The position numbers and the translations under genes were made by a program. The notes below the pieces were generated by a model, which searched no databases, was not told where the DNA came from, and saw only the letters and a list, made by a program, of their open reading frames with translations. From assembly GCA_963716725.1 (NCBI GenBank), contig CAVQUB010000013.1, positions 1-64,000 of the forward strand: a stretch of DNA of 64,000 nt, in the 5' to 3' direction. The stretch comes from an uncultured delta proteobacterium. Lineage in GTDB: Bacteria; Myxococcota_A; Polyangia; Polyangiales; Polyangiaceae. This document shows positions 2,336-63,965 of the stretch, one piece after another (the first letter of the stretch is position 1; each line of letters starts with the position of its first letter).

Positions 2336-2598
2336 GATTCCGCGCCCGAGGGGCGCCAGGTTGCCGACCAGATCCCGGAGCCGGAGGCCGCGGCGCTCCG
2401 GTCCTGCTGGAAGCTGGCCGCGCATTTGCCCGTGTCGCCCGGGACGACAAACCCCTGGCTAAGCCCGCACGTCGGAATACGGATGGCCCCGAGATTGTCT
2501 TGTGCGAGCGGGTCGAGCTATAGCAAGCGCCGGTTTTTTCCGTGGAGCTTCGCAGGGATGGACAAGGTCATCGCGCCCCGCCGGAGGCAGCCCCGGCC

Positions 2599-3708
2599 GT
2601 GAGAGCGGCGGCCCTGATCGTGCTCCTCGGCTCGTGGCCGGCCGTCGCGTCCGCAGACGCCGGGGTGGACTCGGGTCGGCTCGGGAGCGTGGCTGCGACC
2701 TGCACGGAGCGTTGGCCCGAGGGCAAGCCGCGACCCAAACTCGAGGAGCGGTTCCCGGAAAAGGGAACGAGTGGCTGGGCCGCGACCCTCGAGGTCGTGG
2801 TCGAGCACGGCAAGGGTGAGACCGTCTTGCCCAACGGATTTCGGATCGAGCTCGAGAGCGATGCGGCGCGCGCCCTCGAGCGCGCTGGTTTCGCGCTGCC
2901 TGATCCCGAGGGCGGCGCTGGACCCAGCATCGAAGTCGTCGCGAGCGGTGAGAGCGCAAAGAGCACCGTCAAGGTCCCGGTCGTCGCGCTGCCGCCCAAG
3001 CCCGGACGCAACGTGATGGAGCTGCCACCCTTGCCCATCGCCATCGCCCGCGCCAGCGGAGAGATCGTCACGCTGTGCACCGCCCCGCACAGCATCGTGG
3101 TCGAAGATCCAATCGCGAACACTCCAGACGCGAAGCCGAAGGACAACCCGCCACCGCGCCCGCAGCCGGAGGTCTGGACCGCCGCGCAGCAGGTCGCCTT
3201 GGCAGCGCTGATCGCGCTCGTGGTGGGCGCGCTCTTGGCGTGGCTGATCGGACGTTGGCGCGCTCGCCCCAAGCCCGCCGCGCCGCCACCACCGCCGCGC
3301 CCACCCTGGGAAGTGGCCATCGAAGAGCTCGGCGATCTGCGGGCCCGCGAGTTGATCAAGAACGAGCGCTTCACCGAGCACTACGACCTCGTGTCGCATA
3401 TCGTGCGCAAGTACTGCGGCGATCGCTACGGCTTCGACGGCCTCGAGAGCACGACCCGAGAGATGATGAGCGTCCTCCGGCGTGTCGTGCCGGCGATCCC
3501 AGTGCTGGCCGAGATCGAAGAGTCGCTGCGCCACGCAGATCTGGTGAAATTCGCCCGGCTGACTCCCACCGGCGACGAGTGCAAAGAAGCCCTGGGTCGG
3601 GCCGAGGAAATCGTGCGCCGAACCGTGCCGCTGATGACCGAGCCGCCGCCTTTGCCGCCCGCCAGCCGCACCGAGCCGCGCGCCGGTGAAGGAGCCGGAG
3701 CCCGATGA
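2599..3708 (+). CDS. Bat-operon membrane protein (BatD-like/DUF4381-like)
   Basis: Signal peptide, beta-rich domain, single TM helix, PPWEVAIEEL...IVRKY...LESTTREM...ADLVKFAR tail typical of the gene preceding batA; start uncertain (2542 or 2599). Confidence 0.75.
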   Translation: MRAAALIVLLGSWPAVASADAGVDSGRLGSVAATCTERWPEGKPRPKLEERFPEKGTSGWAATLEVVVEHGKGETVLPNGFRIELESDAARALERAGFALPDPEGGAGPSIEVVASGESAKSTVKVPVVALPPKPGRNVMELPPLPIAIARASGEIVTLCTAPHSIVVEDPIANTPDAKPKDNPPPRPQPEVWTAAQQVALAALIALVVGALLAWLIGRWRARPKPAAPPPPPRPPWEVAIEELGDLRARELIKNERFTEHYDLVSHIVRKYCGDRYGFDGLESTTREMMSVLRRVVPAIPVLAEIEESLRHADLVKFARLTPTGDECKEALGRAEEIVRRTVPLMTEPPPLPPASRTEPRAGEGAGAR

Positions 3709-4927
3709 AGCGCCCGGAGCTGCCCGCGCAGCAAGCGGAGCCTTCGCCCGCGACCGCGGCCACCGGGCCCGGGCTCGCGGATCCTGGCAGCGCATCGGCT
3801 TCGTGACCCTCGCGCTCGTCGTCGCGTTGGGCGCAGGCCTGGCGTACCCGGCCGTCGCGCGGGGGCCCGAGCTCGTGAGCGCGAGTTGGCAGAACTGGTG
3901 GCTGTTGCCGCTCTTGGTGCTGGTCCCCGTCGTATTCTGGCGCGCGACCTGGGGCGAAGACCGCCGCACTCCGCGGCTGCGCCTCGGGACGCTCGCTCCC
4001 TTCGCCGTCGGTCCCGTGGGCTGGCACGTGTGGCTGCGGGATGTTCCGGGAGTGTTCCGATCGGTGGGCTTCGGCCTGTTTGTCCTGGCGTTGGCGCGCC
4101 CCATCAACACGCTGCGACCCGAGGTCGGCACCGAGCGAGGCATCGACGTCGTGCTCGTGCTCGACCTTTCCGGATCGATGCAGGCCGTGATCGACAACGT
4201 GCCCGAAAACCTGTCCAAGTTCATGCCGCGAGATCGCGATCGCCGCATTCGGCCCACGCGGCTCGACGTGGCCAAGGCCGTGATTCGGGACTTCATCTCG
4301 CGGCGCAAGACCGACCGCATCGGCGTGGTGGTGTTCGGCAAGGAGGCTTACGTGCTGTCGCCTCCGACGCTCGACTATCACTTGCTGGACGCGCTGGTGG
4401 CAAAGATGGAACTGAAGCTCATCGACGGCAGCGCCACGGCCATCGGAGACGCGACGGGCGTCGCTTCCGCGCGGCTCCGCCGCAGTCAGGCCCAGAGCAA
4501 GGCCATCATGTTGCTCACGGATGGCGACAACAACGCTGGGCAGATCTCGCCGGAGTACGCCGCGCACCTGGCCAAGCTGGTGGGCGCGAAGCTCTTCACC
4601 ATCCAGATCGGCAGCGGCGACGTCGCCGAGGTGCAAGACGGCTTCGACCTGTTCGGGCAGCCGCGCTACGTGACGGTCCCCTTCCCGGTCAACCCCGCGC
4701 TACTGAAGAAGCTGGCCGACGAGACCGGCGGAGAGACCTACGTGGCGAGCGACGCAGCGAAGCTCCAGGAGAGCTTCCACGACGTGCTCGACAAGCTCGA
4801 GAAGACACGCTTCGAGGCCAGCATCTCCAGCTTCGAGGACATGTACCGCTTCCTGCTCCTGCCGGGCGTGCTGCTCATCGCGCTCGACGCCATCTTGCGC
4901 GCGCTGATGCTGCGGAGGTTCCCGTGA
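3686..4927 (+). CDS. batA: BatA-type vWA domain membrane protein
   Basis: LALARP, MIDAS DLSGSM, DRIGVVVFG, TAIGDA, LLTDGDNNAG, C-terminal TM helix. Confidence 0.85.
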   Translation: MKEPEPDEAPGAARAASGAFARDRGHRARARGSWQRIGFVTLALVVALGAGLAYPAVARGPELVSASWQNWWLLPLLVLVPVVFWRATWGEDRRTPRLRLGTLAPFAVGPVGWHVWLRDVPGVFRSVGFGLFVLALARPINTLRPEVGTERGIDVVLVLDLSGSMQAVIDNVPENLSKFMPRDRDRRIRPTRLDVAKAVIRDFISRRKTDRIGVVVFGKEAYVLSPPTLDYHLLDALVAKMELKLIDGSATAIGDATGVASARLRRSQAQSKAIMLLTDGDNNAGQISPEYAAHLAKLVGAKLFTIQIGSGDVAEVQDGFDLFGQPRYVTVPFPVNPALLKKLADETGGETYVASDAAKLQESFHDVLDKLEKTRFEASISSFEDMYRFLLLPGVLLIALDAILRALMLRRFP

Positions 4928-7023
4928 AGTTCGCGCAGCCGCTCTGGCTGGTCGGAACCGGCCTCGCAGTCGTGGTCGCAGTGCTGCTCATCACCGGCGG
5001 AGTCTTGTTGGTCCGGTCGGTACGGCGATTCGGGGACGAGCAGTTGGTCGAGGGCCTGCTCACCGCAAAACCCGGCGGTCGCCGAGCCTTCAAGGGCGCG
5101 CTCCTCGTGCTCGCCGTCGCCTTCGGCTTCTTCGCGGCCGCTCAGCCTCAGTACGGTCGCGGCACACGGATCATTCCGGCCACGAACCTGGATGTCATCG
5201 TCGCGCTCGACTACTCGAAGAGCATGCACGCGCGCGATGTCAAACCGTCGCGCACCGCACGGGCAAAGACCGAGGTCGCTCAGCTCATCGCGGATCTGCC
5301 CGGGGCCCGCTTCGCGGCAGTGGCCTTTGCCGGCGAGCCGATGGCCTTCCCCATGACCAGTGATGGCGGGGCCGTCGCCCAGTTCTTCCGTCAGCTCTCG
5401 CCCAACGACATGCCAGTGGGCGGAACCGCCATCGCTCGAGCGCTCGAGGCCTCGCGAGATCTCTTCGCCCGAGATCCACTCTCGAAGACTCACAAGAAGG
5501 TCATCGTCCTGGTGACCGACGGCGAGGATCTCGAAGGCGATCCGGTGGGCGTAGCCGAGGCGGCAGCGCGAGACGGGGTCACCATCCACGTCGTGCAAAT
5601 CGGCGGGCGTACCCCCGAAGCTCTGCCAGAGGTGAGCGAAGCGGGGGAGATCACCGGCTGGCGCACCGACTCCGAGGGCAAGCCCATCACCACGCAGCTC
5701 TCGGCGGCCGGCGAGGCACAGCTCGGCAAGATCGCGACGGTGACCGGCGGCAACGTCGCGCGCAGCGAAGCGGGCTCCACCGGGATCCGCACCATTGCCG
5801 CCGCGCTGCGCAAGATGATGACTGGCGAGCTGAGCGAGCGGGTCGAGACCGTCTACGCAGACGTGTATCTGTGGCCCCTCGGCCTCTCGCTCCTGCTGCT
5901 CTTCGTCGAGACCTTCGTCCCGGAGACGTCCAGGCGCTCCCGCCCAACCCAGCTGCCTCCACCGCTGGACAAGTCCAAAGCGCGGCGTCGTCGACGCGGC
6001 AAGACGCTCGCGGCCCTCGGCGCGGGCACGCTGCTGGCGCTGGTGTTCCCCCTCGGATGTGACGGCGGCATGGACCGCGTGTTCGAGCGGAACGCCCCTC
6101 AGGTAAATGAGGCCATTTCCGCCCTCGATGCCGGGGACGCGCAGGTTGCCATTGGGCTCCTGGCGGACTACCTGGCGACCGGCAAGTGTGAAGAAGGTCA
6201 AATCAGCACTAACGACGGCTTGCGCAAGCGGTCGAACGCGACCTTCGACCTGGGACTGGGCCTGTTCGAGATCGCCGAGACCTTCGGCAAGCGCTTCGGC
6301 GACGAAGTGATCGCCGGCGACGCTGGGCTCTCCCCCCAAGAAGAGGCGGAGCTGGCCCAGCGCAGCGATCAGGTGGACTGCGCGCTGAAGATCGTCGAGC
6401 TGATCGCCCTCGATCAAGAGGTCCGCATCGACCTCCGAGCGCGAGCGCACTACCTGGCGGGCAACCTGGAGTTCTTGCGGCGCAGGTATCGCGCGGCCGT
6501 CACCCACTACGATCGCGCGCTCAAGCTCATCCCGGGGCTGCCCAACGACGCCGGCGACGAGGTCGGTCGAGACGCGGCGTGGAATCGATCCATCGCCCTT
6601 CGCCGAGCAGAAGACGAAGAAAACGCCAACGACGGCAGCCACGACGCGGAGCCAGACGCGAGCGACGCGAGCGAGGACTCGAAGCCCGACGGCGACGACG
6701 GGGACGCACCGGAAGCCGGCAACGACTCCGGCGAAGGGGGAGGAGGACCAGACGGGGGAACCGACAGCGGCCCCGACACCGGCGACGACGGCCAGAGCCA
6801 GAACGCCGACGAAGACGGCGGCAAGGAAGCGGGCACCGACAGCGGCGCCGATCCCAAGGATCAACCGGACGCCGGCGCGCCGCCGGAGCAGCAAGAGAGC
6901 CCGACCACCAATCAAGACGAACGCATGCTCGACATGCTCGAGCGCGCGCCGACCTTGCAGCAGCAGGCCGCCAAAAACCGCGCGCTCCAGCGCCAGCCAC
7001 GCACGGGCATGGAGGACAAGTGA
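4924..7023 (+). CDS. batB: BatB vWA domain fused to a BatC-like TPR/acidic region
   Basis: AQPQYG, DYSKSM, FAAVAFAG, LVTDGED; then TPR-like helices (AHYLAGN...YDRAL...AAWNR), acidic low-complexity stretch and MLDMLE tail; GTG overlaps batA stop. Confidence 0.8.
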   Translation: MKFAQPLWLVGTGLAVVVAVLLITGGVLLVRSVRRFGDEQLVEGLLTAKPGGRRAFKGALLVLAVAFGFFAAAQPQYGRGTRIIPATNLDVIVALDYSKSMHARDVKPSRTARAKTEVAQLIADLPGARFAAVAFAGEPMAFPMTSDGGAVAQFFRQLSPNDMPVGGTAIARALEASRDLFARDPLSKTHKKVIVLVTDGEDLEGDPVGVAEAAARDGVTIHVVQIGGRTPEALPEVSEAGEITGWRTDSEGKPITTQLSAAGEAQLGKIATVTGGNVARSEAGSTGIRTIAAALRKMMTGELSERVETVYADVYLWPLGLSLLLLFVETFVPETSRRSRPTQLPPPLDKSKARRRRRGKTLAALGAGTLLALVFPLGCDGGMDRVFERNAPQVNEAISALDAGDAQVAIGLLADYLATGKCEEGQISTNDGLRKRSNATFDLGLGLFEIAETFGKRFGDEVIAGDAGLSPQEEAELAQRSDQVDCALKIVELIALDQEVRIDLRARAHYLAGNLEFLRRRYRAAVTHYDRALKLIPGLPNDAGDEVGRDAAWNRSIALRRAEDEENANDGSHDAEPDASDASEDSKPDGDDGDAPEAGNDSGEGGGGPDGGTDSGPDTGDDGQSQNADEDGGKEAGTDSGADPKDQPDAGAPPEQQESPTTNQDERMLDMLERAPTLQQQAAKNRALQRQPRTGMEDK

Positions 7024-8879
7024 ACGCGCTCAGGCTGCTGTGCCTCGCGCTGGCGGTGCTCTGCGGAATCGGCTGGCCGAAGCCGGCTCGCGCCCAGAGC
7101 GTGGCATCGCTCAAGACCCAGGCTTCGAGTCGTCAGGTCGAGGTCGGAGAGTCGTTCACCGTGACCCTGACCGCGATGACCGACAAGGGAACGACGCTGC
7201 CGCAGGGCCCCTCGATCTCCGTGCCCTCGGGCATCAGCGTGAGCGGTCCGAGCGTCGCCATGCAGCAGCAGGTGACGCTGCAGGGTGGGAGCTTCCAGCA
7301 GCGCTTCGGCATCAGCGCCACCTGGACCCTCGAGGCGCAGAAGCCGGGCCGCTACCGCATCGGCCCGCCGAGCGTGGCCGTGGGCACGCGGCGCGTGTCC
7401 GGCGACGTAGTCGAGGTCGAGGTGGTGGCCGCAGGCGGATCGCCCAGGCCGCGACGCCGCGATCCCATGGACCCCTTTGGCTTCGGGTTGCCTTCACTTC
7501 CGGGATTTCCCCTCGGAGACGATCCGCCGCTGGATCTCCCCGCCTTCCCCGAAGAACTACGGGTCTCGGCGGCGGAAGAGCCCGTGGCCTTCCTGCGGGC
7601 GGTTGCCACGCCGTCGCGGGTGGTCATGGGCGAGCAAGTCACGCTCAAGATCTTCGCTTACGGCGGGCGCGGTCCCTTTCGCGAGACGCACACCTCGGAG
7701 CCGAGCCGCGAGTCGTTCCTGGCCCACACCCTCCTCGAGAACTCCTACGGCGAGACGATGCACCGCGTGCCCATCGCCGGTGAGACCTGGCACGTCAAGA
7801 AGGTGCGAGAGCTCGCGCTCTTCCCGATCCGCACCGGAAAGCTGACCATCGGCGCCATGCGCATGGGCTTCGACGGCCGCGGCTATCCCAGCTCCAGCGC
7901 CCACAAGGGCCTGGTCAGGCACAGCGCACCGATCGTCATCGACGTCGTCGAACCTCCGCTTCAAGGGCGTCCGGCCGGCTACAAGTCGGGAGACGTGGGA
8001 CGCTTCGCGCTCAGTGCGAACGTCGAGCCACGGGAGCTTACAGCGGGGGACGCGGTGAGCGTCGTGGCCAAGCTCGAAGGCACGGGGCACCTGCCCTTCG
8101 ATCTCAAAACGCCGCAGCGAACAGGGGTGACCTGGCTCGAGCCCACCACCGTGGAAGAGATCGAGCCGCGTGGAACGAGGATCGGTGGGTGGCGCAAGCT
8201 CACCTACGTCGTCCGTATCGACACCGCCGGCGACGTCGATCTGGGCGAACTCAGCCTTCCCTACTGGGATCCCGAGCGTGAGTCCTACGACGTGGCCAAG
8301 GTGTCGCTGGGACTGATCAAGGTTCGGCCGGGAAGTGGATCGGCCAACGACGCAAAGCACGACGACGCGCTCGCGGGCGTGGTGACGGCGCGAAAGACCC
8401 TCGGTTCGCCGCCGAAAGGACCCTTCACCCTCGGCAACCACGCGCTCTTTTGGCTCGCGCTCGCCCTGGCGCCCCTCGGCGTCGTGCTGGCCGGCGCGGG
8501 GCATCGTGTTGGCAGTCGCCTCTCGACCCACTGGCGGCAAAAATCCCGGAGCCACGTCTCGCTGGCGCGGGAGGCCCTCGCCGATGCCCGCGCCGCGTTG
8601 AAGAGGCAGGACGCGGCCGAAGCCGCGAACCTGAGCGAGAGGGCGGTACTCCTCGCCGTGGAGGGCGCGACCACTCTGCGTGCGCGCGCTGTGCTCAAGA
8701 GCGAGCTCGGCGGCGAGCTCACGGCTCGCGGCGTGGACCCCGCGGTCGCCGAGGACATCGTCACGCTCCTCGAACGCTGCGACGACCTGCGCTTCACGGG
8801 CGATGCGGACGCTCTCGGGGCAGAGGCTCTGGTGGAGCGGGCGGCCACCGTCGTGCGATCGCTGGGGCGCGGTGCATGA
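7020..8879 (+). CDS. batD: BatD family protein
   Basis: Signal peptide, VEVGESFTVTL, PGRYRIGP, GDVGRFALSA, C-terminal TM helix; GTGA overlap with upstream gene. Confidence 0.85.
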   Translation: MNALRLLCLALAVLCGIGWPKPARAQSVASLKTQASSRQVEVGESFTVTLTAMTDKGTTLPQGPSISVPSGISVSGPSVAMQQQVTLQGGSFQQRFGISATWTLEAQKPGRYRIGPPSVAVGTRRVSGDVVEVEVVAAGGSPRPRRRDPMDPFGFGLPSLPGFPLGDDPPLDLPAFPEELRVSAAEEPVAFLRAVATPSRVVMGEQVTLKIFAYGGRGPFRETHTSEPSRESFLAHTLLENSYGETMHRVPIAGETWHVKKVRELALFPIRTGKLTIGAMRMGFDGRGYPSSSAHKGLVRHSAPIVIDVVEPPLQGRPAGYKSGDVGRFALSANVEPRELTAGDAVSVVAKLEGTGHLPFDLKTPQRTGVTWLEPTTVEEIEPRGTRIGGWRKLTYVVRIDTAGDVDLGELSLPYWDPERESYDVAKVSLGLIKVRPGSGSANDAKHDDALAGVVTARKTLGSPPKGPFTLGNHALFWLALALAPLGVVLAGAGHRVGSRLSTHWRQKSRSHVSLAREALADARAALKRQDAAEAANLSERAVLLAVEGATTLRARAVLKSELGGELTARGVDPAVAEDIVTLLERCDDLRFTGDADALGAEALVERAATVVRSLGRGA

Positions 8880-26523: not shown

Positions 26524-26703
26524 AGGTCTGTCGAAGAATGGCGGAGCGCAAGCCGGCGGAGCCGGCCCACACCCGTCGGCCCGTCGGGTGTCACGCAGCG
26601 CGTCGCGTGGGGTGGGGCCCCAACGAATTCACTTCGGTGGGGCGGGGAGGCGCGTGCCTCCCCGATGACAAAGTGAAAGAGCTGTCGAATTTTCGACAGC
26701 TCT
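26524..26703. mobile_element. MITE/REP-like hairpin element
   Basis: Imperfect TIRs AGGTCTGTCGAAGAAT / rc AGAGCTGTCGAAAATT, flanked by TGA on both sides; internal hairpins CCCCAACGAA..TTCGGTGGGG and CGGGGAGGC..GCCTCCCCG; 13-bp IR at 26677-26704. Confidence 0.6.
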
Positions 26704-47192: not shown

Positions 47193-47801
47193 TCAGGTCT
47201 GGATCAGCGACAGCGCGATGGCCTCGAGGGCGGACTGAACGACCTCTTCGTCCGCGTCGCTCATCGGATCGAAGAAGTCGTGCAGCGCCAGCCCGTCGAG
47301 GATGCCGATCACGAGCCGCGGCATCACGTGCACCGGGACGCGGGGCGTGATGCCCAGCTCTCGGAAGCTCTGTTCGAGGTGCACGCGCACCTCCTCGCGG
47401 TTCGCCTCGAACATGGCCGAGAGCGACTTGCGCAAATCGGGATCGTAGATGCCCTGGGCCATGAGATTGGCCAGGACACGCAGCTCGGGGCTGGACTGCG
47501 CGCGCGCGGCGCGCATCTCGCGCAGCGCGCGACTCACCTTCTCTCGAGGCTCGCCGGGCGCGTCCCAGGCCGCGCGGACCCGCTCGCGCATGGCGTCGGC
47601 GCAACGCACCAGGACCTGCGCCATCAGATCGTCCTTGCTGTCGAAGTGGTAGTGGACCGCGCCCTTGCTCATGCCCGCCGCCGCGGCAATGTCGCCGATG
47701 CTGGTGCGCGCGTAGCCCGCGCCCGCCAGCGCCCGGATCGCTGCGTCCAGGACCTGCTGCCGGCTCGCTTCGCTCTTCTTGTAGGTCCGACGCGGGCGCA
47801 C
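47193..47801 (-). CDS. TetR/AcrR family regulator
   Basis: RQQVLDAA...GYARTSIGDIAAAAGMSKGAVHYHFDSKDDL HTH. Confidence 0.95.
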   Translation of the reverse strand: MRPRRTYKKSEASRQQVLDAAIRALAGAGYARTSIGDIAAAAGMSKGAVHYHFDSKDDLMAQVLVRCADAMRERVRAAWDAPGEPREKVSRALREMRAARAQSSPELRVLANLMAQGIYDPDLRKSLSAMFEANREEVRVHLEQSFRELGITPRVPVHVMPRLVIGILDGLALHDFFDPMSDADEEVVQSALEAIALSLIQT

Positions 47802-54244: not shown

Positions 54245-55146
54245 CAGCTCGCTCGGAGCTCGAGGCCGAGCTCGACCCCGAAACGCCTGGCTTCGGCCTC
54301 GTCCTGAGGGTACGCGATGCGCCCCTCGCGCCGACGAAGCCGCGTTCCGTCGGGCTCGGCGAGCAGCGCTCGGAGCCAGAGTTCATCGCCCTCGCGCAGG
54401 GCGTAGGCCGCGACCGGCAGCTGGCAGCTGCCCTCCACCGCCTGCATCACGCCGCGCTCCGCGGCCACCGCGATGGCGGTCTCGGTGTGAGCGAGCGGTG
54501 CAAGAAGCGCAAACGTCGCTTCGTCGCCCGCGCGTAGCTCGATGGCGAGGGCGCCCTGACCCACGGCGGGCAGCGAGACCTCGGGCTCGAGCACCTCCGT
54601 CACGCGGTCGCTCAGGCCCAGGCGAAGGAGCCCGGCGTGTGCCAGCACGATGGCGTCCACGACGCCTTCGCTGCATTTGCGCAGGCGCGTGTCCACGTTG
54701 CCGCGCAGCGGAACGAACTCGAAGCTGGGGAACGCGGCGGCGAGCTGGACCTTCCGGCGCAACGACGACGTGCCGACCTTCGATCCGGGCGCCAGCTCGG
54801 CCAGCTTCGCACCGGTGCGCGTCACGATCACGTCACGCGGATCGACCCGCGGTGGGATGCAGCCGATGGCCAGGGAGGGCGCCAAGTCCGCGGGCACGTC
54901 CTTGAGCGAGTGGATGGCGATGTCGGCGCTCCGATCCAGCAGGGCCTCCTCGATCTCCTTGATGAACAACCCCTTGCCACCGATCTCCGAGAGCGAGCGA
55001 TCTTGGATGCGGTCGCCGGTGGTGACCACGTGCTGCTCTCGGATTTCGAGGCCCGGATGCCGCGACTCGAGCTGTCGCATGAAAGCCCGCGCCTGAGCCA
55101 GCGCGAGCTGACTCTTGCGAGTGGCGACGACGAGCTTCGAGGTCAT
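54244..55146 (-). CDS. hemC: porphobilinogen deaminase
   Basis: ATRKSQLALAQ, TTGD, GKGLFIKEIE, HSLKDVP, GTSSLRR, RGNVDTRL, EGSCQLP. Confidence 0.98.
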   Translation of the reverse strand: MTSKLVVATRKSQLALAQARAFMRQLESRHPGLEIREQHVVTTGDRIQDRSLSEIGGKGLFIKEIEEALLDRSADIAIHSLKDVPADLAPSLAIGCIPPRVDPRDVIVTRTGAKLAELAPGSKVGTSSLRRKVQLAAAFPSFEFVPLRGNVDTRLRKCSEGVVDAIVLAHAGLLRLGLSDRVTEVLEPEVSLPAVGQGALAIELRAGDEATFALLAPLAHTETAIAVAAERGVMQAVEGSCQLPVAAYALREGDELWLRALLAEPDGTRLRRREGRIAYPQDEAEARRFGVELGLELRAS

Positions 55147-56525
55147 TCTCCGTTGGTTCCGGTGGCGCGACGCTGGGACCGCTCCGCGCCTTCGTCCTCG
55201 AGGGGTGGAGCGGCTCGGGACGGGGTCGATGGCACGGACACGGGCTCGGCGTCCAGATCGAAGAGCTCGGTCAGGGAGTTCATCAGCTGTTCCACGCGAT
55301 AACTCTCGTAGTCCTTGTCGGTGACCACCTGCCGCAGATGAGCCGTCGGCGCGTGCAGCATCTTGTTGAGCGCTGCCTCGAGCATCGTCTCGAGAGCCGC
55401 GCGCTCGTCGGCGCCCAGGTGTTTGAGCCGGCCCTTGAGGCTCCGGTCGAGCTCCGCGCGCAGCATGCGACCGAGCCGAGCGCGGAGCGCCACGACCACC
55501 GGCGTGACCTGCGTGCTCTCGGCCCAACGCTCCCAGCCCGCCATTTCCTCGCACACGACGCGATCGGCGTGCTCCGCTTCACGGGCACGGCTCTGACGTG
55601 TTTCGCCCACCACCCGTTCGAAATCGTCGATGTTGTAGAGAAAGACTTCGCTCTGGCTCTCGACCCGCGGATCGACGTCGCGAGGCACCGCGAGATCGAT
55701 GAAGAAGAGGCTTCGACCCCGGCGCTTCTTGCGCAGCCCGTGGACGAGCTCGTACTCCACCACAAAACCCGGCGCGCTCGTGCTGGTGATCACGACGTCG
55801 GCTTCGATCAACGCCGCCGCCAGATCGCTCCAACGGCGCGCCTCACCGTCGACCGCCGCCGCCAGCACGGCGACCCGGGCCTCGTTGCGCCCGACGACCA
55901 GCAGGCGTGTGCCGGCGTGTTTCAGGAGTTTCGCTACGGTTTCGGCCATCTCGCCGGAGCCCAGCAACACCACCGTGCGCCCGGAGAGCTCGCCAAAAAT
56001 CTGTCGCGCGAGGTCCACCGCCACGCTGGGCACCGAGATCTGCCCCGCCCCAAGCTGGGTTTCGGTGCGCACGCGCTTGGCTGCCCGGATGGCCCTGGGC
56101 ACCGTGCGGTGCAGCGCGCCGCCGACGGTTCCAGCAACTCGCGCGGTCTCGAAGGCGTCCTTCACCTGCCCCAGGATCTGCGGCTCACCCAGCACTAGCG
56201 AGTCCAAGGAGGACGCCACTCGGAACAAGTGGCGCACGGCGTCCACGCCCTCGTGGACGTACAAGTGTTGTCGGATGTCGCTGGCGATGGCCGACAGGCT
56301 CTCGATGGCCTCCCGGCCGACCGCTGCCAAGTCCGACGCCAGTCCGTCACGCCCCGCGGCGATGAGCTCAACGCGGTTGCAGGTCGAGATCAGCATTGCC
56401 TCGCCAATGGACGGCCGCGCCACGATCTGCCGGAGCACCCGCGGGATCTCCGATTTGGGCAGCGCGATGCGTTCTCGGACCGCGATCGGCGCGGTCCGGT
56501 GAGAGAGCCCAGCGACGACGATCAT
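55143..56525 (-). CDS. hemA: glutamyl-tRNA reductase
   Basis: GLSHRTAP, STCNRVE, LDSLVLGEPQILGQVK, DLAVPRD. Confidence 0.98.
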   Translation of the reverse strand: MIVVAGLSHRTAPIAVRERIALPKSEIPRVLRQIVARPSIGEAMLISTCNRVELIAAGRDGLASDLAAVGREAIESLSAIASDIRQHLYVHEGVDAVRHLFRVASSLDSLVLGEPQILGQVKDAFETARVAGTVGGALHRTVPRAIRAAKRVRTETQLGAGQISVPSVAVDLARQIFGELSGRTVVLLGSGEMAETVAKLLKHAGTRLLVVGRNEARVAVLAAAVDGEARRWSDLAAALIEADVVITSTSAPGFVVEYELVHGLRKKRRGRSLFFIDLAVPRDVDPRVESQSEVFLYNIDDFERVVGETRQSRAREAEHADRVVCEEMAGWERWAESTQVTPVVVALRARLGRMLRAELDRSLKGRLKHLGADERAALETMLEAALNKMLHAPTAHLRQVVTDKDYESYRVEQLMNSLTELFDLDAEPVSVPSTPSRAAPPLEDEGAERSQRRATGTNGE

Positions 56526-57343
56526 CCGCTCGCCCCGGTGCTCTTGATCACGTAGAGCAGGATCACCACCGTGACGCACATCACTCCCGCCAGGGTGCCG
56601 TAGGCCGATCGCCGCCCGCGCCACCCGGCGGCGGCCCGCATCACCAGCACTATCGCCAGGAGGATCCAGGTCGTGTACCCGAGGCCCGCTCGCAACAGCT
56701 CGGCGCCACCCGAAGCGCCGAGCCGGCTCGTGAAGAAGCCACCAGTGACCACCCCGAGCGTGAGCAGCGGGAACCCGGTCAAGAGTAGGCGATGCTCGGT
56801 TCGGTCGAGCGTATCGAGGGGCGGCAGCTTGGCGGTGAGCCAAGTGGGACGCTTCTCCTTCAGGCTGCGCTCCTGCACCAAATAGAAGGCGCCCGAGGCG
56901 CCGGCGAGCAGAAAGAAGCCGACGCCGGCCAGGTTCGCGGTGATGTGCACGATGAGCAGGAGCCGCGAAACGCCTTGGATGGAACTCTGCTCGGCGCCGA
57001 CGAACTGAGCACCGATCAAGAACGTGAGGGCGATGGGCGCCACCACCGCACCGACGGCCTGCAGCTTGAATCGAGTGCGCAGCGCCAAGTACATGCCCGT
57101 CAGGATCAACGCCGAGAGGCTCAGCGAGAAGTGCAGCGACTCGACGGGACAGATCCGAGAGAACAGGCTGGCGGTCACCACATGAGCGGCGTGGAGGCAC
57201 GCGCCAACGCCCAGCGCGACGGGGGCCGACATGGCGGCCGTCGCCGAGCCTTCGCGCCGCGCGAGATCGAGGAAGAAGAACACGGCAGCGGCCGCATACG
57301 CTGCGGCCCCCAGATAGAACGCGGCGGTCGCGATGCCTTCCAT
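56522..57343 (-). CDS. ccsA: cytochrome c assembly protein (CcsA/HemX-like)
   Basis: About 8 TM helices; YLVQERSLK.K, LPPLDTLD, GFPLLTLG, GWRGRR; adjacent to hemA. Confidence 0.85.
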   Translation of the reverse strand: MEGIATAAFYLGAAAYAAAAVFFFLDLARREGSATAAMSAPVALGVGACLHAAHVVTASLFSRICPVESLHFSLSLSALILTGMYLALRTRFKLQAVGAVVAPIALTFLIGAQFVGAEQSSIQGVSRLLLIVHITANLAGVGFFLLAGASGAFYLVQERSLKEKRPTWLTAKLPPLDTLDRTEHRLLLTGFPLLTLGVVTGGFFTSRLGASGGAELLRAGLGYTTWILLAIVLVMRAAAGWRGRRSAYGTLAGVMCVTVVILLYVIKSTGASG

Positions 57344-57345
57344 GA

Positions 57346-57747
57346 TCACTCGATGTGGCGGGCGAGGTACTGCGCCAGCATCTCCTCGTCGCTGCTGGAC
57401 CGCGGTCCGTCCGGCGGGGGAGCGCTGGTGGCGCGGTGCTCCACGAAGCTTCCGACGGGCGTCCCCGCGAACCCGGGCACGACGTCGTAGGCCAGATCTC
57501 CGAGCACCATGGAGGTGTCCAATATCTCCGCGCCGAGCTCGGTCATGAAGCTCACGGACTTCACTTTGCCCACGAGCTCGTGGACGTCGAGCCCCCCGGT
57601 CACCTCGGCGAGGACGCGCACCGCCTCGACCACCCGGTACTTCCGCCCTTCGCCCTTGATGACCAGCTCGCTCCCGACCAGATCGACGCGGTCCGCGCCG
57701 AGCCACGAATCGAGGGCTCGCTGGGGGAAGAACACGCGGTTTTTCAT
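57346..57747 (-). CDS. hypothetical protein
   Basis: Coherent ORF at the head of the hem operon (TTG at 57753 is an alternative start). Confidence 0.75.
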   Translation of the reverse strand: MKNRVFFPQRALDSWLGADRVDLVGSELVIKGEGRKYRVVEAVRVLAEVTGGLDVHELVGKVKSVSFMTELGAEILDTSMVLGDLAYDVVPGFAGTPVGSFVEHRATSAPPPDGPRSSSDEEMLAQYLARHIE

Positions 57748-57800
57748 GCGCAAAGGCCGATGCTACACGCTCACTGGCTAGGAGCGGAGAACGCTCTACG

Positions 57801-58297
57801 GCCGGCGGGGCCCGCCGGCAACGCCCTGGGCAAAGTCAGCGAAAATCCCACGGGAAGCCCGCGCGGGGCGGCTCAGAAAGAATCCCCAGCGACCACGAGG
57901 GAAGGAGCACCGGCAGCGCTTGGGAGTCGCCGGTATCTGGGCGAGGCGCACCCCAGGTTGATTCGCCGCGAGACGCTGGCTCGGGTCTGTGCGGCGCCGC
58001 GAGCCGCAGCGTCGCGGCATGGGCGCGAGCGCATCCGACCTGGACGCCTTCCCGCCCGGCGCTCTGCCGCGCTCGAGGGCGAAACGGCCCTGCGAAGAGT
58101 CAGTTCCTGACCCACTGCGCTGCCGCTGCCAAGACCCAAGGCGGCGTCCCTTGCACGACCCTGGGACGACCCTGGGAAGTGCCCGGAGGGGCAAGTCCCT
58201 GAAGAGGGACCCCCCTTGGTGGGGGGGCGTGCAAGCACCGTCCCAGCGCTCGGCGTCACGAGAGAAAGAGCACTGCATGCCCATTTCTTTCTTGACG
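57801..58297. ncRNA. candidate structured non-coding element (ncRNA or MITE-like)
   Basis: Nested complementary segments 57912-19/58117-24, 57944-48/58045-49, 57953-60/58036-43, 57965-78/58007-18, 57978-83/58000-05; multiloop 58150-57/58228-35 enclosing three hairpins; hairpin 58254-97. Confidence 0.4.
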
Positions 58298-58477
58298 CAT
58301 TTCCAGGCGACTCGCGCTCGCGCTTCGCCGAGAACGTCACCGAAGGCGTCCCTGTTGCGCGACGATGCTCGCCCATCGTGTTTCGCTCGAGCGACGACGC
58401 GCGAAGCGATTGGATGCGCGAAACGCGCTCACCGTGTCAGCCGTGAGGCCAAAAAACAGCGTGTTACTGAAGAAAGC

Positions 58478-59000
58478 ATGCACGCTCTCTCTTCGGTCTC
58501 CGATCGCGAACTTCGTGAGCGCCTCGCCTCCGCCGTGAGCGCCGAGCAGCTGGCCTCTGCTGACGTCATCTTCCACCTGGCGGAGCTCGACCGCCGAAAG
58601 CTATACCTCGAAGACGCCTGCTCCTCGCTCTTCGCGTACTGCGTGGAGCGGCTCGGCTACTCCGAGGACGGCGCGAGCAAGCGAGCCCGTGTCGCCCGCT
58701 TGGTTCTGCGTTTTCCCCAGGCCCTCGACGAGCTCGCGAGCGGCGCCATCCACCTGACCGGACTGTTCCTGCTCTCCGGGCACCTCACGGAAGACAACGC
58801 CGACCCACTCATCGCCGAGGCTCGCGGCAAGTCGAAACGGCAGCTCGAGGAGTTGCTCGCCCGGTCATTCCCCCGGTCCGATGTGCCGGCGACCATCACC
58901 CCGAGCGGGCCCGAGCCGGCTCGAGCGGAGCTATCAACAATGTCCGGGACAGGTGGCTCCGAGCCGTCGGCGCCGCCCGCGTCATCGGCGCACCGCCCCC
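58478..59000 (+). pseudogene. HNH endonuclease gene, 5' part (DUF222-like helical domain), interrupted by transposon
   Basis: LAELDRRKLY...CSSLFAYCVERLGYSE..A.KR..VAR...FP....LASGAIHLT; rejoins 62264 in frame. Confidence 0.85.
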
Positions 59001-59176
59001 TGTAGTTTCCCACGCTCTTCCCCCGCCCGAATCCCGGGCATTTTCGTGATGCCCTCGGGGTGGTTTCCCGGAGTGCGGTGGTCGAGTGGGCGTGGCGAGG
59101 TGGTGGCAGAAAGGGAGCGGCCCGACGGAGACGTGGATCTCCGCCGGGCCTTGTGGACCGTCGCCGGGCGCTGGGC

Positions 59177-59974
59177 TCAGGTGACTTCGGCCATGGCGGA
59201 CTGGATGTGCTCGGTCGTGACGGTCCTGCTCTTGGTGAGCGCGGCGGCCATGAGCGCGTGGTGAGCGAGCAGGTTCACCTTCCGGGGCAGGCCGTTCGAC
59301 GCCTGGAAGATCGCCTCCTGGGTTGCGGGCTCGAAGAGTTCGAGCTCGGTTCCGGCGAGTCGGAGCAGGTGCGTGAGGTACGGGCCGAGCTCGTCACGGG
59401 CAAGACCCGGGACGTGAGCGCGCACGACGACGCGCTGCGAGAGCGCCTCGTGCACCGCCATGCCGAGGCGGCGGCGCAGTTCCGGGTGTCCGACGAGGAC
59501 CAGGCAGAGGCGGTTGTCGGAGTCCATCGCGTAGTTGGTGAGCAGGCGCAGGTCCTCGAGCACGTCGCTCCTGAGGTGATGAGCTTCGTCCACGATCAGG
59601 ATCGGTTTCTGCCGGGCCTCGCTGCAGAGCCGCGTCACCTCGGTCCCGATCTGCCGGAACAGTGCGGCGCGGTTGCGCTCGGTGGGTAGGCCGATCTCCC
59701 AGGCGATGGTCTTGTAGAGATCCATCACGTTGCCGGTGGTGAGCGACACGTAGAGGACGCGGTGCAGACCCGTGTGGAGACCGGCGACAATCTTCCGACA
59801 CGCGGTGGTCTTGCCGCTGCCGCTCTCACCGGTGACCACACCGATGCCGCGCAAGTCGAGGAGATGGGCGAGCCGGGCGTCGAGTTCTCGGAGCGCACCG
59901 GAGGCGAAGAGCTCGTCGGGCTCGATGTTTTTGGCGAAGGGGTGGCGGGTGAGGCCGAAGTGCTTGCGGTACAT
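59177..59974 (-). CDS. ExeA-like AAA+ ATPase (TnsC/MuB-like role inferred)
   Basis: HFGL..HPF, GESGSGKT, IVDEAH, LVGHPEL, GLPRKVN; TGATG-coupled to the transposase. Confidence 0.93.
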   Translation of the reverse strand: MYRKHFGLTRHPFAKNIEPDELFASGALRELDARLAHLLDLRGIGVVTGESGSGKTTACRKIVAGLHTGLHRVLYVSLTTGNVMDLYKTIAWEIGLPTERNRAALFRQIGTEVTRLCSEARQKPILIVDEAHHLRSDVLEDLRLLTNYAMDSDNRLCLVLVGHPELRRRLGMAVHEALSQRVVVRAHVPGLARDELGPYLTHLLRLAGTELELFEPATQEAIFQASNGLPRKVNLLAHHALMAAALTKSRTVTTEHIQSAMAEVT

Positions 59975-61377
59975 CAGAGGAGGTCCCCCTCGTCGTCGCC
60001 AGCGCCGCCCTGCTGGTTGTCCCCGACATCGAAGTCGAAGTCGCTCAAGCGCATGCCGGGGGGCGGCTCGTCCACGGGCTGAGATGGATGCAGGGCCTTC
60101 GTCGTGTGATCGCGTCGGACGAAACAGTTGGCGTAGACGTCGACACGGCGAGCGATCTGGATCTGCTTTCCGCGATGCCAGACCTGGACGGCACGTGTCT
60201 CTCGCGGACGCGCCGGATCGAAGCGAAGGACGACGGTCTCGCCGACGAGCATCGCGTCCACTTCGTAGGCCACGCTGTCGAGCGACACGGTGCGGTCGGC
60301 CTGCACACGGCGCTTCTGCTCGAAGAGAAACAGATCGGCGAGGTCGCTCGACGACTGGCGCACCTCGTCTGAGCGCATCGCCCAGCGATCCGCGGGCGTC
60401 TCACCGTCGAGTCCGCGGTGGGGACTCCGATGATACTCACCCTCGACCCACGCCCAGAGACGGCGGTTGAGTGCTTCGAGACTCCGCCTGTCCTCGGGCT
60501 GGAGCGTCGGCAGGAGCTGAAGACGCACGGTCCGAAACCACCGCTCCATCTTTCCTTTTCCCTGGGGCGTGTAGGGACGCGCGTGGATCAAGGTGATGCC
60601 GAGCTTCGCGCACACGAGCGCCAGGTGCTGTGCTTTGAAGGCGGCACCGTTGTCGACGTAAAGCCGCTTGGGGATCCCGCGGCGGCAGATCCCTTGCTCG
60701 AGCACGCTGAGAAGGGTCGCGGCGTTCTCGCTGAGCGCGAAGGCCGCATACGGCACCATCCGTGTCGCGTCGTCGATGACGGCGAGCAGGTACGTCTTCC
60801 GCTGCCGCCCGGACACGGCGACGGCGGGGCCGTGCATCACGTCGCTCATCCACAGTTCGCCCGCCTTCTCGAAGGCGAAGCGTCGGCGGTCCTTCGCCGT
60901 CGGCTCGCCCTGCTTCTTCTGCATGAGTCCGGCCCGAGACAAGATCCGGTGCACCGTCGATGGCGCAAGCGTGACCCCCTCCGGGATCTTCGCGAAGCGC
61001 GTCACGTGCGCGATGACGAGTCCGACGCTGAAGTCCGCGTGCTGCTCTTTCGTCTCGCAGAGCAGATCCGCGATCTCCCGGGGAATGGCGCGAGCCGAGC
61101 CCTCGTCCCGTCGGATCTTCGGGACAAGGGCGTCGAAGCCGCCGCGTCGGTAGTCCGCAAGCCATCCGCGGATCGTTTCGGCCTGGACCTTCCGCCGGAG
61201 CGTTCCGGGGATCTCCCAGTCCTTCTCCGCCTTCTCGCGCAGCTTCGCGTACATGCCGCGCGCACCGCGCTCGAGGTGGAGCAGATCTGCGATCACGCCA
61301 TAACGGAACAGCGCGATCTGCTTTCTGCGCTCGGCGTCAGCGAGCGTGCGTTCGTTTTCGGGGGTCGGTGTCCTCAT
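59974..61377 (-). CDS. DDE integrase/transposase (rve core + Mu-transposase C-terminal-like domain)
   Basis: HTH region; WMSD, IDDATR, YVDNG, GKMERWF; RRVQADRTVSL...YEV...LRFDP. Confidence 0.93.
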   Translation of the reverse strand: MRTPTPENERTLADAERRKQIALFRYGVIADLLHLERGARGMYAKLREKAEKDWEIPGTLRRKVQAETIRGWLADYRRGGFDALVPKIRRDEGSARAIPREIADLLCETKEQHADFSVGLVIAHVTRFAKIPEGVTLAPSTVHRILSRAGLMQKKQGEPTAKDRRRFAFEKAGELWMSDVMHGPAVAVSGRQRKTYLLAVIDDATRMVPYAAFALSENAATLLSVLEQGICRRGIPKRLYVDNGAAFKAQHLALVCAKLGITLIHARPYTPQGKGKMERWFRTVRLQLLPTLQPEDRRSLEALNRRLWAWVEGEYHRSPHRGLDGETPADRWAMRSDEVRQSSSDLADLFLFEQKRRVQADRTVSLDSVAYEVDAMLVGETVVLRFDPARPRETRAVQVWHRGKQIQIARRVDVYANCFVRRDHTTKALHPSQPVDEPPPGMRLSDFDFDVGDNQQGGAGDDEGDLL

Positions 61378-61428
61378 CGGAGTTCTCTTTCGGTGTCGGC
61401 CCGGGTCCGTCCCGGGCACACCAACCCG

Positions 61429-62106
61429 CTATCGGTCCCGCCGAGGAGGGTCCGGCCCCGTTTCGTGTGGGGTCGGCTCTCGCGATGCTTGCCGCGCTCG
61501 CCCTCGCGCCCGCAGTCCGACCGGCGCTGGCATGGCGGCCAGGTGAATGGCCGCGGCCGACCGCAGCGCCACGAGCGCATCCGACACCCCGAGTCGTTGC
61601 CGCACCGCGCCAAGCGTCGCCGGGCAGCCCGTGAGCGCCGGCACCAGCGTCACTGCCGCCACGAGCGCCGCGTGGACAGCAACACGCCGCCGCCGGAGCC
61701 ACCGCAGCGCGCTTGGAAGCGTCACCGCGTCCGCTGCGATCGCGGGGCGCACCTTCTCGGCGACCGCCTCCAGACTCTTGGCGCCCTCGGCCACCTCGAC
61801 GGCCCGCTCGACCTCCTCGAGCGTGCCCGACAGTCGGGAAGCCAGAAAATCAGGCAAAAGGCTGATAGTCACCCGAGCCCGCGGGCACCAGAACCGGGCG
61901 ACGCGGACGCCGACGGGGCGGACCCGACCGTAGCTCCCGTGCCCCGCGAGACCGCAGCCGCCCTCCGGGTGCAGCGGGCACCGCTCCAAACTTGCGGCCC
62001 GCCACGCCTGCTCGGTAACGTACCGCTCGCTGGTGAGGGTCGTCTCGTAACGGACAACCAATCCTTCGCTGGCCGGGTCCGTGCGGGTGCTACCGCGACG
62101 GACCAA
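61429..62106 (-). CDS. transposon accessory protein with Cys/His cluster (DUF6431-like)
   Basis: CPLH..GGC...HGSYGR...RFWCP....TISLLPDFLA; start uncertain. Confidence 0.75.
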   Translation of the reverse strand: MVRRGSTRTDPASEGLVVRYETTLTSERYVTEQAWRAASLERCPLHPEGGCGLAGHGSYGRVRPVGVRVARFWCPRARVTISLLPDFLASRLSGTLEEVERAVEVAEGAKSLEAVAEKVRPAIAADAVTLPSALRWLRRRRVAVHAALVAAVTLVPALTGCPATLGAVRQRLGVSDALVALRSAAAIHLAAMPAPVGLRARGRARQASREPTPHETGPDPPRRDR

Positions 62107-62263
62107 CCTTCTCCGGCGATCAGCTTTCCGCGGATCAGCCTCTCAGGAAAAAAGAACGGCGAAGCTCTCCGGAGTCCGAACCCGGCTCACCCGAAACAAC
62201 GAGCGCCCAGACCGACACCACGACCGCGGGGGATCACGACGGAGGGTGACGGCCTACACCCCC

Positions 62264-62976
62264 GGGTCGAACCGCTCTCGGCCACGAGCTTCCGCGTGGA
62301 ATTCACAGCCAGCGCCACGCTCCGCGACAAGCTCGATCACGCCCGGAACCTCCTCAGCCACGCCGTGCCGAGCGGGGATCTCGCGGCCCTTATCGAGCGG
62401 GCCATCGACCAGCTCATCGCCGTCGAGACGAAGCGCCGCTCGGGCGCGGGCAAGCCGCGCAAGCACCGCGAAGTGAAGCCGGGCTCGCGCCACGTGCCGG
62501 TGGAGGTCCAGAGCGCGGTGCGGGAGCGGGATTGCAACCGGTGCACCTTCGTCGATGCCGAGGGGCACCGCTGTTCTGAAAAGCAGTTCTTGACCATCGA
62601 GCACGTCGACCCTTACGCGATGGGAGGGCCAACGACAGCGGATAACTGCTGTTTGCTCTGTTCGCCTCACAACGCGTTTCGAGCGCGACAAATCTACGGC
62701 GAGCAGCACGTCCGGAAGAAGGTCTCGGAGGCTCGCGCGAGCCGGGGAGCGAGCGGCGCGACTGCGGGGACTGCGGGGACTGCGGGGACTGCGGGGGCTG
62801 CGGGGACTGCGGCCGAGGCGAAGGGCGACGTGTTCGAGAAGGTGCTGGCGGCTCTGCTTCACTCGGGGTTCAAGCGGAAGGACGCGCGGCGAGCCCTCGA
62901 ACAGGTGCGCGCGCTCGGAGTCGAGCCGCAGCTCGAACCAGTGCTGCGCGGAGCGCTGGCCGTACTCACTCCCTGA
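62264..62976 (+). pseudogene. HNH endonuclease gene, 3' part (HNH + RuvA-C-like tail)
   Basis: VRERD.NRCTF....HRC.....IEHVDP...GG.T..DN..LLC..HN; tail VLAALLHSGFKRKDARRAL...LRGAL. Confidence 0.87.
62761..62814 (+). repeat. 9-bp tandem repeat ACTGCGGGG x6 (Thr-Ala-Gly linker)
   Basis: Directly visible; two units have substitutions. Confidence 0.9.
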
Positions 62977-63011
62977 CACGGTTCGGGCACACCCCCGACA
63001 AAGGCTGAGCA

Positions 63012-63824
63012 TTGGTCTCATCGCGCAAGGCTCAACTGCTCGAGCGCGTCCGCAGCTGCACGGACTCGCGCGAAGCCACGACGGATGACGATCGTCCCCG
63101 GTGGTCCACTCGAGGAATTGCCCGTGTAGCCAGCAGCTCACGCCGAGCCGCGGCGCAGAAGCGTGCGGCCCAGGATCGCCTCGACCGGCTCGACGCGGCG
63201 CTCGCGCAGTTGCCCGGGGTCGCGAGGACCAAGAGCAAGAGCGGCGCCAAGGACCCGACCCCTCGAGTGTCGACGACCGATCCGCAGGCACGGGTGATGA
63301 AGATGGGCGACGGAGGATTCCGGCCCGCCTACAACGTGCAGCTCACCACGACCGCCGACGACGCGCTGGTCATCGTCGGTGTCGCCGTCACCCATCGCGG
63401 CAGCGACATGGGCGAATCGACTCCGATGCTCGAGCAGATCGAGAAGCGGACTGGCATCCGGCCACGAGAGCTCCTCGTCGATGGGGGATACGCGAAGCAT
63501 CAAGCCATCGACGAAGCTGCCGCGCGCAACGTCACCGTCTACGCTCCGCTCCCCAAGCCCCGCAACGACGACGGCCCTGACCCCCACCGGCCGAGGGGTG
63601 CCGACAGCGCGGCCGTTGCCGCCTGGAGACAGCGCATGGCCACCGACGAGGCCAAGCAGATCTACCGGCAACGGGCCGCGACCGCCGAGACCGTCTACGC
63701 GGACGCCAAAACGCACCGCGGGCTCGACTCGCTGACCCTGCGGGGACGGGGCAAGGTCCTCGCCAGCGTGACGCTCTTCGCGCTCACGTACGACATCCTG
63801 CGCGCCATCACCCTCGGCGTCTGA
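63012..63824 (+). pseudogene. IS1182-like transposase, 5'-truncated
   Basis: STTDPQARVMK..DGGFRPAYNVQ, LVDGGY, YRQR...AE, LRG..KV; N-terminal part absent (homology seems to start near 63140). Confidence 0.85.
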
Positions 63825-63965
63825 ACCCGCCACCGCTCTGCCGCGGCCATACTTTCCGCGCTCGGCCCACCCGAATCGAATCGCGCCCCACGGCGCTCCC
63901 CGCGCTCCCGCCCTGCTCCTGGGACTCGCCCTCGCTCGATCTCCCGGCGGCGCACGCTCATCCGA

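Follow-up and report, generated by a model that had tools for sequence, protein, structure and literature searches.

A transposon-split HNH nuclease gene in a polyangiacean genome: a candidate dead copy of a selfish, multicopy, repeat-bounded element

The closest described counterpart of the element considered here is the REP13E12/DUF222-HNH family of mycobacteria, a repeated unit that has been treated as a repetitive, mobile-like element (PMC10589994). The unit, found also in other actinobacteria, is ~1.3-2 kb long and encodes one protein, in which a helical N-terminal domain is followed by an HNH nuclease domain. Three further kinds of system invite comparison: free-standing HNH homing genes, the IscB/OMEGA systems, and insertion sequences together with REPtron-like elements. 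We analysed a stretch of 64,000 nucleotides (‘the window’; ~68% G+C) from contig CAVQUB010000013.1 of an uncultured delta proteobacterium of the Polyangiaceae, in which an HNH nuclease gene is split in two by a transposon. The region is best explained, with a probability that we put at roughly 0.6, as a dead copy of a selfish, multicopy, repeat-bounded single-gene HNH element of Polyangiaceae. In its intact form, such an element consists of a terminal inverted repeat, a leader of ~200 nt, a single open reading frame (ORF) and a second inverted repeat just past the stop codon. The encoded protein begins with a helical, putatively DNA-binding domain, continues with the HNH nuclease and a linker of tandem repeats, and ends in a tail resembling domain III of RuvA. 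The selfish HNH gene we rate as a known kind of entity, and the repeat-bounded, multicopy form as the variant encountered here.

The likeness to REP13E12 may extend to the N-domain, where the window protein shows a weak DUF222 signal that is in register with the profile (PF02720; E 0.098, residues 14-93 against profile positions 3-82), and to a neighbouring Atlas cluster, in which 42% of the members carry PF02720. In this family, however, DUF222 stays under the Pfam cut-off: two of 23 aligned members show it at E ≤ 1 (E 0.098 and 0.032), and among 49 more distant full-length representatives, HNH is matched at E ≤ 1e-3 in 20, RuvA_C in 5 and DUF222 in none. Besides these two domains, the family has the RuvA-domain-III-like tail, the repeat linker, the conserved leader and, in two subfamilies, the long terminal inverted repeats. 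With free-standing homing genes it has in common a single nuclease gene that forms a cassette with its own putative promoter region, a selfish character, frequent decay to pseudogenes, and an intact catalytic HNH motif. Classical homing genes, however, occupy a fixed target, with a single copy in each allele, whereas the present family reaches dozens of copies, spread over unrelated chromosomal sites and with inverted repeats, and has no relatives at E ≤ 1e-3 in phage or plasmid records. IscB/OMEGA systems likewise join a mobile-element-associated HNH protein to a conserved non-coding region directly upstream, but Pfam scans of the present family find no RuvC domain, the bridge helix is missing too, and the leader is unstructured, with no match to HEARO or any other Rfam family. 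Under the NCBIfam model guided_IscB the protein reaches 20.2 bits, far short of the cut-off of 175, and matches over the HNH part only (residues 119-187), which places it outside IscB. Insertion sequences and REPtron-like elements resemble it in their terminal inverted repeats (41-322 nt here, with sub-repeats), deleted derivatives and many copies. They differ in that its sole ORF is an HNH nuclease and not a DDE, HUH, serine or tyrosine enzyme, that no target duplication is resolved, and that repeats are found in two of about six subfamilies, A and B. A literature search found no description of an HNH protein joined to RuvA domain III, and the titles and abstracts returned on HNH endonucleases, terminal inverted repeats and selfish elements described no such element.

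The two pieces of the window gene (Table 1), both read and translated directly, sum to 1236 nt, or 411 codons plus a stop, when the insert and one copy of its duplication are taken out. This is the 411-aa ORF that a first-pass annotation, made from the sequence alone, had reconstructed by removing the transposon. In two intact relatives (95% and 94% identical to the N-terminal piece) the frame runs uninterrupted through the junction (...AHRPRVEPLS...), so the split at 59000/62264 is real. In 49 of 74 copies the ATG is preceded, at a distance of no more than 39 nt, by an in-frame stop, and the ATG at 58478 is therefore taken as the start; a longer reading frame, open in the window from 57962, was rejected because of these close stops in most copies. 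With its ORF split and its right repeat cut away, the window copy is dead.

The family itself is large. A search with the C-terminal piece returned at least 200 proteins of 151-483 aa among 8000 candidates scored, and those that are named are mostly HNH endonuclease or McrA from Myxococcales/Polyangiaceae metagenome-assembled genomes (MAGs), several of them on one contig. The N-terminal piece, searched against representatives of 50% identity clusters, matched 10,523 at E ≤ 1e-3, 5,442 at 1e-10 and 96 at 1e-30. Copies were counted in one genome per species with two peptide patterns; of 129 stretches that matched, 96 could be confirmed as copies, from which 79 distinct loci were retained, all from records whose titles give a Myxococcota lineage or ‘uncultured delta proteobacterium’. 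Numbers per genome, which are lower bounds, stand at 23 loci in MAG JBMOMJ, 13 in DATDJP, 11 in CBDCTZ, 6 in DATEDZ and 5 in JACPVJ. At 49 loci the ORF runs uninterrupted for 330 aa or more and has sufficient flanking DNA; broken copies number about a dozen, and several contigs terminate inside a copy. Flanking genes differ from locus to locus: when related flank ORFs are clustered, the two biggest clusters take in 8 and 6 of the 79 loci, the larger of these probably being C-terminal halves of broken HNH copies, and the named neighbours include the housekeeping genes asnS and arfB. The ORF is under purifying selection, with column entropies of 0.16, 0.11 and 0.72 at codon positions 1, 2 and 3 in a group of 21 copies. 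Individual copies decay by insertion and deletion. No paralogue or solo leader was found elsewhere in the 64-kb window.

About 200 nt of non-coding leader travels with the HNH gene. Within the 677 nt upstream of the window gene, only ~58069-58477 is common to other copies, similarity to one relative (L009) beginning at 58069 and to another (L006) at 58103; the stretch before it is matched by no other locus, and contains a short perfect hairpin at 57801-57819. Across the family, upstream DNA is held in common with paralogues in other contexts at 66 of 74 loci, from the ATG back to at least ~-190 and often to -260, -320, -440 or -560. On the other side, similarity stops 0-28 nt past the stop codon; in the window, the likeness to eight related copies ceases at 63003-63004. 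A profile of the last 210 nt before the ATG, built from 65 copies and searched against ~560 kb, gave 76 matches, of which 71 lie at annotated ATGs, two at further HNH copies, and three are weak self-hits on the reverse strand. All 76 are at HNH genes, and no stand-alone leader was found in that sequence. Three-nucleotide periodicity is 0.6-3.5 in the upstream DNA as opposed to 20-39 in coding sequence, and two long upstream ORFs have no family match. A small upstream or divergent ORF was considered and rejected: there is no periodicity and no common peptide upstream of 22 group-D copies. Column entropy in the leader and at third codon positions is, respectively, 0.63 and 0.60, 0.46 and 0.49, 0.49 and 0.45, and 0.97 and 0.72 in four subfamilies; most of the leader thus drifts at about the neutral rate.

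The outer boundary of the shared DNA is marked by the left inverted repeat, IR-L. A 59-nt motif within it, motif M, is found upstream of the gene in 13 of 13 group-A copies. It recurs in inverted orientation 35-107 nt past the stop codon in six of these (L007, L008, L023, L009, L011 and L003) and at the far end of two internally deleted ones (L010 and L012), eight copies in total. The deleted pair (L010 2246-3216 and L012 1-731), which come from two different MAGs, have no HNH domain and keep both repeat ends. IR-L also forms a 10-bp hairpin (arms ~58151-58161 and 58225-58234; 90.8% paired, with two compensatory pairs) that is mirrored at the other end. The better-than-chance fold at 58100-58241 is this left terminal inverted repeat, whose mirror copy lies beyond the stop codon in relatives. 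Upstream DNA was also compared with reverse-complemented downstream DNA at the 49 loci, mismatched pairs serving as a control with a maximum of 36.5 bits. Eight loci exceed that maximum, with inverted repeats of 41-322 nt. In group A, these span 82 nt at 93% identity in L006 (E 4e-30) and 105 nt at 83% in L009 (E 1e-24); in group B (L013, L014, L015, L018, L019 and L020) they span 41-322 nt at 70-88%. Five group-B elements begin, at both ends, at one shared sharp point and contain internal sub-repeats. The window keeps a remnant of the right repeat, whose score was at least equalled by 12 of 500 shuffles; the positions homologous to this remnant in L006 and L009 belong to the repeats just described. 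A weak match to motif M lies elsewhere in the window (47196-47223, E 0.12).

Other insertions touch these ends. In L016 and L017 (~2060-3600), the left repeat is split by an IS4-like insertion, whose transposase (475 aa, DDE_Tnp_1) occupies L017 2163-3587; the two repeat pieces overlap by ~10 nt. Separately, an intergenic hairpin between convergent ORFs in the window (26565-26604) shares 90% identity, across 40 nt, with the insert in the loop of the left-repeat hairpin of L009, and looks like a small REP-like palindrome of a sort that also lies inside some element hairpins.

Repeats of this kind could belong to a miniature inverted-repeat transposable element (MITE)-like, non-autonomous element that is moved in trans, the HNH gene and leader being cargo or an insertion into the repeat. 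Long inverted repeats with internal sub-repeats are typical of transposase-binding ends, internally deleted derivatives retain both ends, the ORF lacks a known transposase fold, and insertion sequence (IS) elements cluster at HNH-element sites. We nonetheless think this unlikely: every repeat match in the sampled DNA borders an HNH gene and none a transposase, idle cargo would not be expected to stay under purifying selection in dozens of copies, as this ORF does, and subfamilies without detectable repeats are equally multicopy.

The first-pass annotation had seen no convincing coding sequence upstream of the gene, which agrees with the low periodicity, and had proposed that the upstream regions of homologues be compared; these do share sequence, and within the ~560 kb searched the shared part does not occur unlinked from HNH genes. 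It had also described many nested helices running almost to the ATG, and these mostly dissolve on closer analysis. Folded whole, the 677 nt give a z-score of -2.9 on both strands (20 shuffles only). When segments are folded separately, with 200 shuffles each, 57801-58099 scores +0.29 and 58242-58477 scores -0.50, and 58100-58241, at -2.32, is the sole segment that folds better than chance. The leaders of 65 copies, each compared with 25 dinucleotide shuffles, have a mean z of +0.13 and a median of 0.06, with 2% under -2 and the two strands alike. A search of the upstream region against Rfam, likewise proposed, returned nothing at E ≤ 1 except two chance-level hits, and no HEARO. RNAalifold predicts four pairs for 21 diverged copies and nine for 65 copies (-9.5 kcal/mol, as against -1.5 ± 1.7 for column-shuffled alignments), and a covariance model made from the window subfamily scores the leaders of other subfamilies at 15-49 bits. 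Covariation, the third check proposed, appears on an alignment fitted to that model, which is biased, and concerns mainly one short palindromic helix (58377-58385 with 58419-58427 in the window) that may be genuine, whether in DNA or in RNA. The proximal 200-240 nt of leader has no RNA-like folding, and a folded guide RNA there is not supported.

The proposal of the first-pass annotation, a mobile nuclease with an RNA partner, stands in its first half—a selfish or mobile gene with a linked non-coding leader—and finds no support in its second. The idea that the upstream region is a structured RNA, forming with the HNH protein an IscB-like ribonucleoprotein that it guides or regulates, can point to the strict linkage of leader and gene, the conserved hairpin with its compensatory changes, the covariation and the excess of G-U pairs (both biased by model fitting), and the weak IscB match (E 2.6e-4). 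Guide RNAs of IS200/605-type elements also come from element ends. All the same, we give this idea hardly any credence. No Rfam family matches, RNAalifold finds few pairs, and the folding scores show no strand asymmetry; the leader drifts at about the synonymous rate, and the hairpin is mirrored past the stop codon. The IscB match covers the HNH part alone and RuvC is absent; the N-domain resembles DNA-binding helix-turn-helix (HTH) domains, weakly, and the spacing of the leader boxes suggests that transcription starts at the ATG.

Those boxes form four conserved islands in the 65-copy alignment. The first is a TTGAC box near -186 (TTGACG at 58292-58297 in the window), of the form T[TA]GAC in 63 of 65 copies; the second, GAAACGCGC, lies near -55; the third is an A-rich box near -30; and the fourth is TGnTA, at -15 or -16 in 61 of 65 copies. 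In the window, TGnTA is at 58462-58466, and with its hexamer occupies 58462-58470, 16 nt ahead of the ATG. Since TGnTA is fixed at 15-16 nt from the ATG, we infer that it may be the extended -10 promoter of a leaderless mRNA; the other boxes and palindromes, including the complementary pair already mentioned, would be protein-binding sites. TTGAC was rejected as a sigma-70 -35 box, as TAnnnT follows it at 16-19 nt in none of the 63 copies and a consensus scan of the window was negative. Also rejected was the left-repeat hairpin as an intrinsic terminator, for in the copies read no T-run follows it on either strand; the terminator-like sites that were found are two, both weak and both on the minus strand.

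The protein has the parts that the first-pass annotation had read from its translation. HNH is matched on the C-terminal piece at E 1.1e-4 (Pfam) and in 22 of 23 aligned family members; its catalytic residues, invariant or nearly so in the alignments, are present in the window, as are the conserved Cys, His and Asn of the Cys-flanked motif. RuvA_C (PF07499) scores E 2.3e-3 on the C-terminal piece, which is under the Pfam cut-off, and is found in 22 of 23 members, at best with E 2e-10; solved RuvA chains in the PDB match the tail at E 0.006-0.19 and align with it through domain III. The linker between HNH and tail is a 9-nt unit repeated 5.9 times (62760-62812). In many copies it is likewise an in-frame tandem repeat of varying unit and copy number (e.g. 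L066 5063-5251, L078 5040-5192 and L060 4965-5302), the longest noted being 18 nt × 10.5. An AlphaFold model of an intact relative, made from a 71-sequence alignment (predicted local distance difference test 84, predicted template-modelling score 0.60), shows the helical N-domain at residues 1-130, followed by a disordered linker (139-166), a beta-hairpin and helices (171-230), the HNH core (250-315) and a three-helix tail (338-386). Searched with Foldseek against the PDB, this model had no match that reached E ≤ 0.001; McrA 6ghc came first (E 0.066), ahead of other HNH domains. The N-domain gave weak matches to the HTH domains of ParB, Spo0J and Noc (probability 0.47-0.66), and its ParB-like identity is only a lead. 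One member stands apart: the second-closest intact relative, P0004, has a 29-residue insertion in its HNH domain (alignment A1 columns 348-376), absent from all other members, which could be real or an artefact of assembly or frameshift.

The McrA match, though weak, raises the question of whether these are host enzymes: repair or McrA-like restriction nucleases that expanded by duplication, with the upstream DNA as regulatory region. JGI calls many members McrA, the conserved boxes are promoter-like, and a RuvA-like tail would suit a role in repair. We hold this to be quite improbable in view of copy numbers that reach at least 23 in a genome, with contexts that are unrelated, the dozen or so broken copies and the contigs that end inside copies, the sharp common unit ends just past the stop codon, and the terminal inverted repeats. 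Nor did a curated defence model match: the only signal was PADLOC mREase_IV, in 2 of 7 queries, at E 0.0095-0.0099 (13.6-13.7 bits).

A selfish element, then, is the reading that we prefer. Its protein would bind the repeats or leader boxes of its own element through the N-domain, and its HNH domain would nick or cut DNA. The RuvA-III-like tail would recruit the host RuvB motor; the break would be repaired or resolved such that the element is copied, and spread could proceed by break-induced copying, as in homing, or by transposition. In a bolder version, which we think doubtful and would not expect to hold, no enzyme but the HNH protein would be needed for mobility, and the bacterial insertion element so moved would represent a new class, with an HTH domain on the repeats, an HNH nick or cut, and a mimic of RuvA domain III that loads RuvB, the outcome being copies at new chromosomal sites.

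Several points weigh against the selfish element. Subfamilies C, D, E and F have no detectable inverted repeats, and 41 of the 49 loci are at background in the repeat test; these include the loci of the genome with 23 copies, whose units are bordered by tandem arrays in place of inverted repeats. By eye, no clear target-site duplication is present at the ends of seven group-A and five group-B elements, and no empty site or solo repeat was seen within the ~560 kb searched, which is a biased sample. The ORF has no known transposase fold, Pfam and fold searches giving only HNH, RuvA_C, nucleases and HTH. Mobility is presumed from the comparison of copies. The spacing of the boxes is the one thing that suggests a promoter, the consensus scan mentioned above gave no sigma-70 promoter for the window copy, and purine-rich, Shine-Dalgarno-like stretches before the ATG in several subfamilies fit a leaderless mRNA badly. 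Finally, the model-fitted alignment of 30 leaders has 82% of its cells paired, double changes in 34 of 43 pairs, and 147 G-U cells against 49 A-C cells, though such an alignment favours the model to which it was fitted, many rows could be accommodated only with large deletions, and the reverse strand of the central part also gives a score; a small RNA or DNA helix may yet lie in the leader.

Between its TG...CA ends, the transposon that splits the HNH gene encodes an IS481-like rve/Mu-transpos_C transposase together with an ExeA/TniB-like ATPase. No second copy was found in the window or in the 79 HNH loci, and the possibility that other HNH copies carry it was accordingly rejected. At three loci in two genomes (the window; L009 5409-6202; L011 5426-6005), the HNH element is followed directly, on its right, by an element of the IS1182 family or what is left of one. 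The window and L011 copies are 5'-truncated, and L009 retains the transposase N-terminus. As this N-terminus lies downstream of the HNH stop codon in L009, the IS stands beside the element and not around it, and insertion of the HNH unit into an IS1182 transposase gene was rejected. Upstream of the window copy (55143-57753, minus strand) are housekeeping-type genes, including one for a cytochrome c assembly (ccsA-like) protein; a long minus-strand ORF there looks, by eye, like glutamyl-tRNA reductase.

Two further observations concern the surroundings of other copies. L018 has two tandem HNH elements (4001-5245 and 7721-8440), separated by ~3.7 kb, and both possess a leader and a left repeat of their own. 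Minisatellite-like tandem arrays (period at least 15 nt) crowd beside HNH units (e.g. L071 3407-3729, L061 3112-3510 and L066 3461-3643; also at L019, L020, L075 and L077). They cover 4.5-13% of the DNA at -1250 to -250, 5-11% at +1000 to +2250, and at most 1.2% beyond 2.5 kb. Among JBMOMJ loci, an array is present upstream in 13 of 19 and downstream in 10 of 19; none is found beside the five JACPVJ loci or the window copy, and repeat units vary by locus.

Table 1. Features of the split HNH element and its surroundings in the window
Feature	Position	Strand	Basis or remarks
135-aa ORF without family	57346-57753	-	divergent from the HNH element
Locus-specific intergenic DNA, outside the HNH unit	57754-58068	.	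between the divergent 135-aa ORF and the element
Left element end, IR-L	58069-58241	+	motif M 58104-58161; repeat start CCCAC at 58111; 10-bp hairpin with expanded loop
Conserved non-coding core leader, promoter- or operator-like	58242-58477	+	65-copy alignment
N-terminal piece of HNH gene	58478-59000	+	helical, DUF222-like or ParB-like putative DNA-binding domain and linker
Left target-site duplication CCCCC (5 bp)	58996-59000	.	direct sequence reading; right copy 62259-62263
DDE transposon, 3258 bp	59001-62258	-	sequence ends (first letters TGTAG, last letters CTACA) and domain matches
AAA_22/TniB-like ATPase, 265 aa	59177-59974	-	Pfam/NCBIfam match
Transposase, 481 aa, rve + Mu-transpos_C	59974-61419	-	Pfam/NCBIfam match
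225-aa ORF of the insert, without family match	61429-62106	-	Pfam, NCBIfam, PADLOC and PHROGs searched
C-terminal piece of HNH gene	62264-62976	+	beta-hairpin/helical region, HNH, repeat linker, RuvA-domain-III-like tail
Right-repeat remnant, inner ~27 nt	62978-63004	-	complementary to 58214-58241 at 20/28 positions
IS1182-family transposase remnant, 5'-truncated	63012-63838	+	NCBIfam transpos_IS1182, E 1.2e-48, under cut-off, model positions 184-343

The HNH family is real, large and mechanistically unexplained. It is a very big and unnamed one, which in Polyangiaceae is present in dozens of copies per genome as single-gene units, and its repeats break myxobacterial genome assemblies, several loci ending within a copy. 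The RNA-guide idea, under which the protein would have been a candidate programmable nuclease, is not borne out. In its place arises the question of how a gene that encodes only an HNH nuclease comes to be scattered over chromosomal sites that are unrelated to one another. A concrete link to the branch-migration motor of the host is suggested by the RuvA-domain-III-like tail, and, were the protein indeed the sole enzyme of its own mobility, an HNH nuclease would be added to the short list of transposase chemistries.

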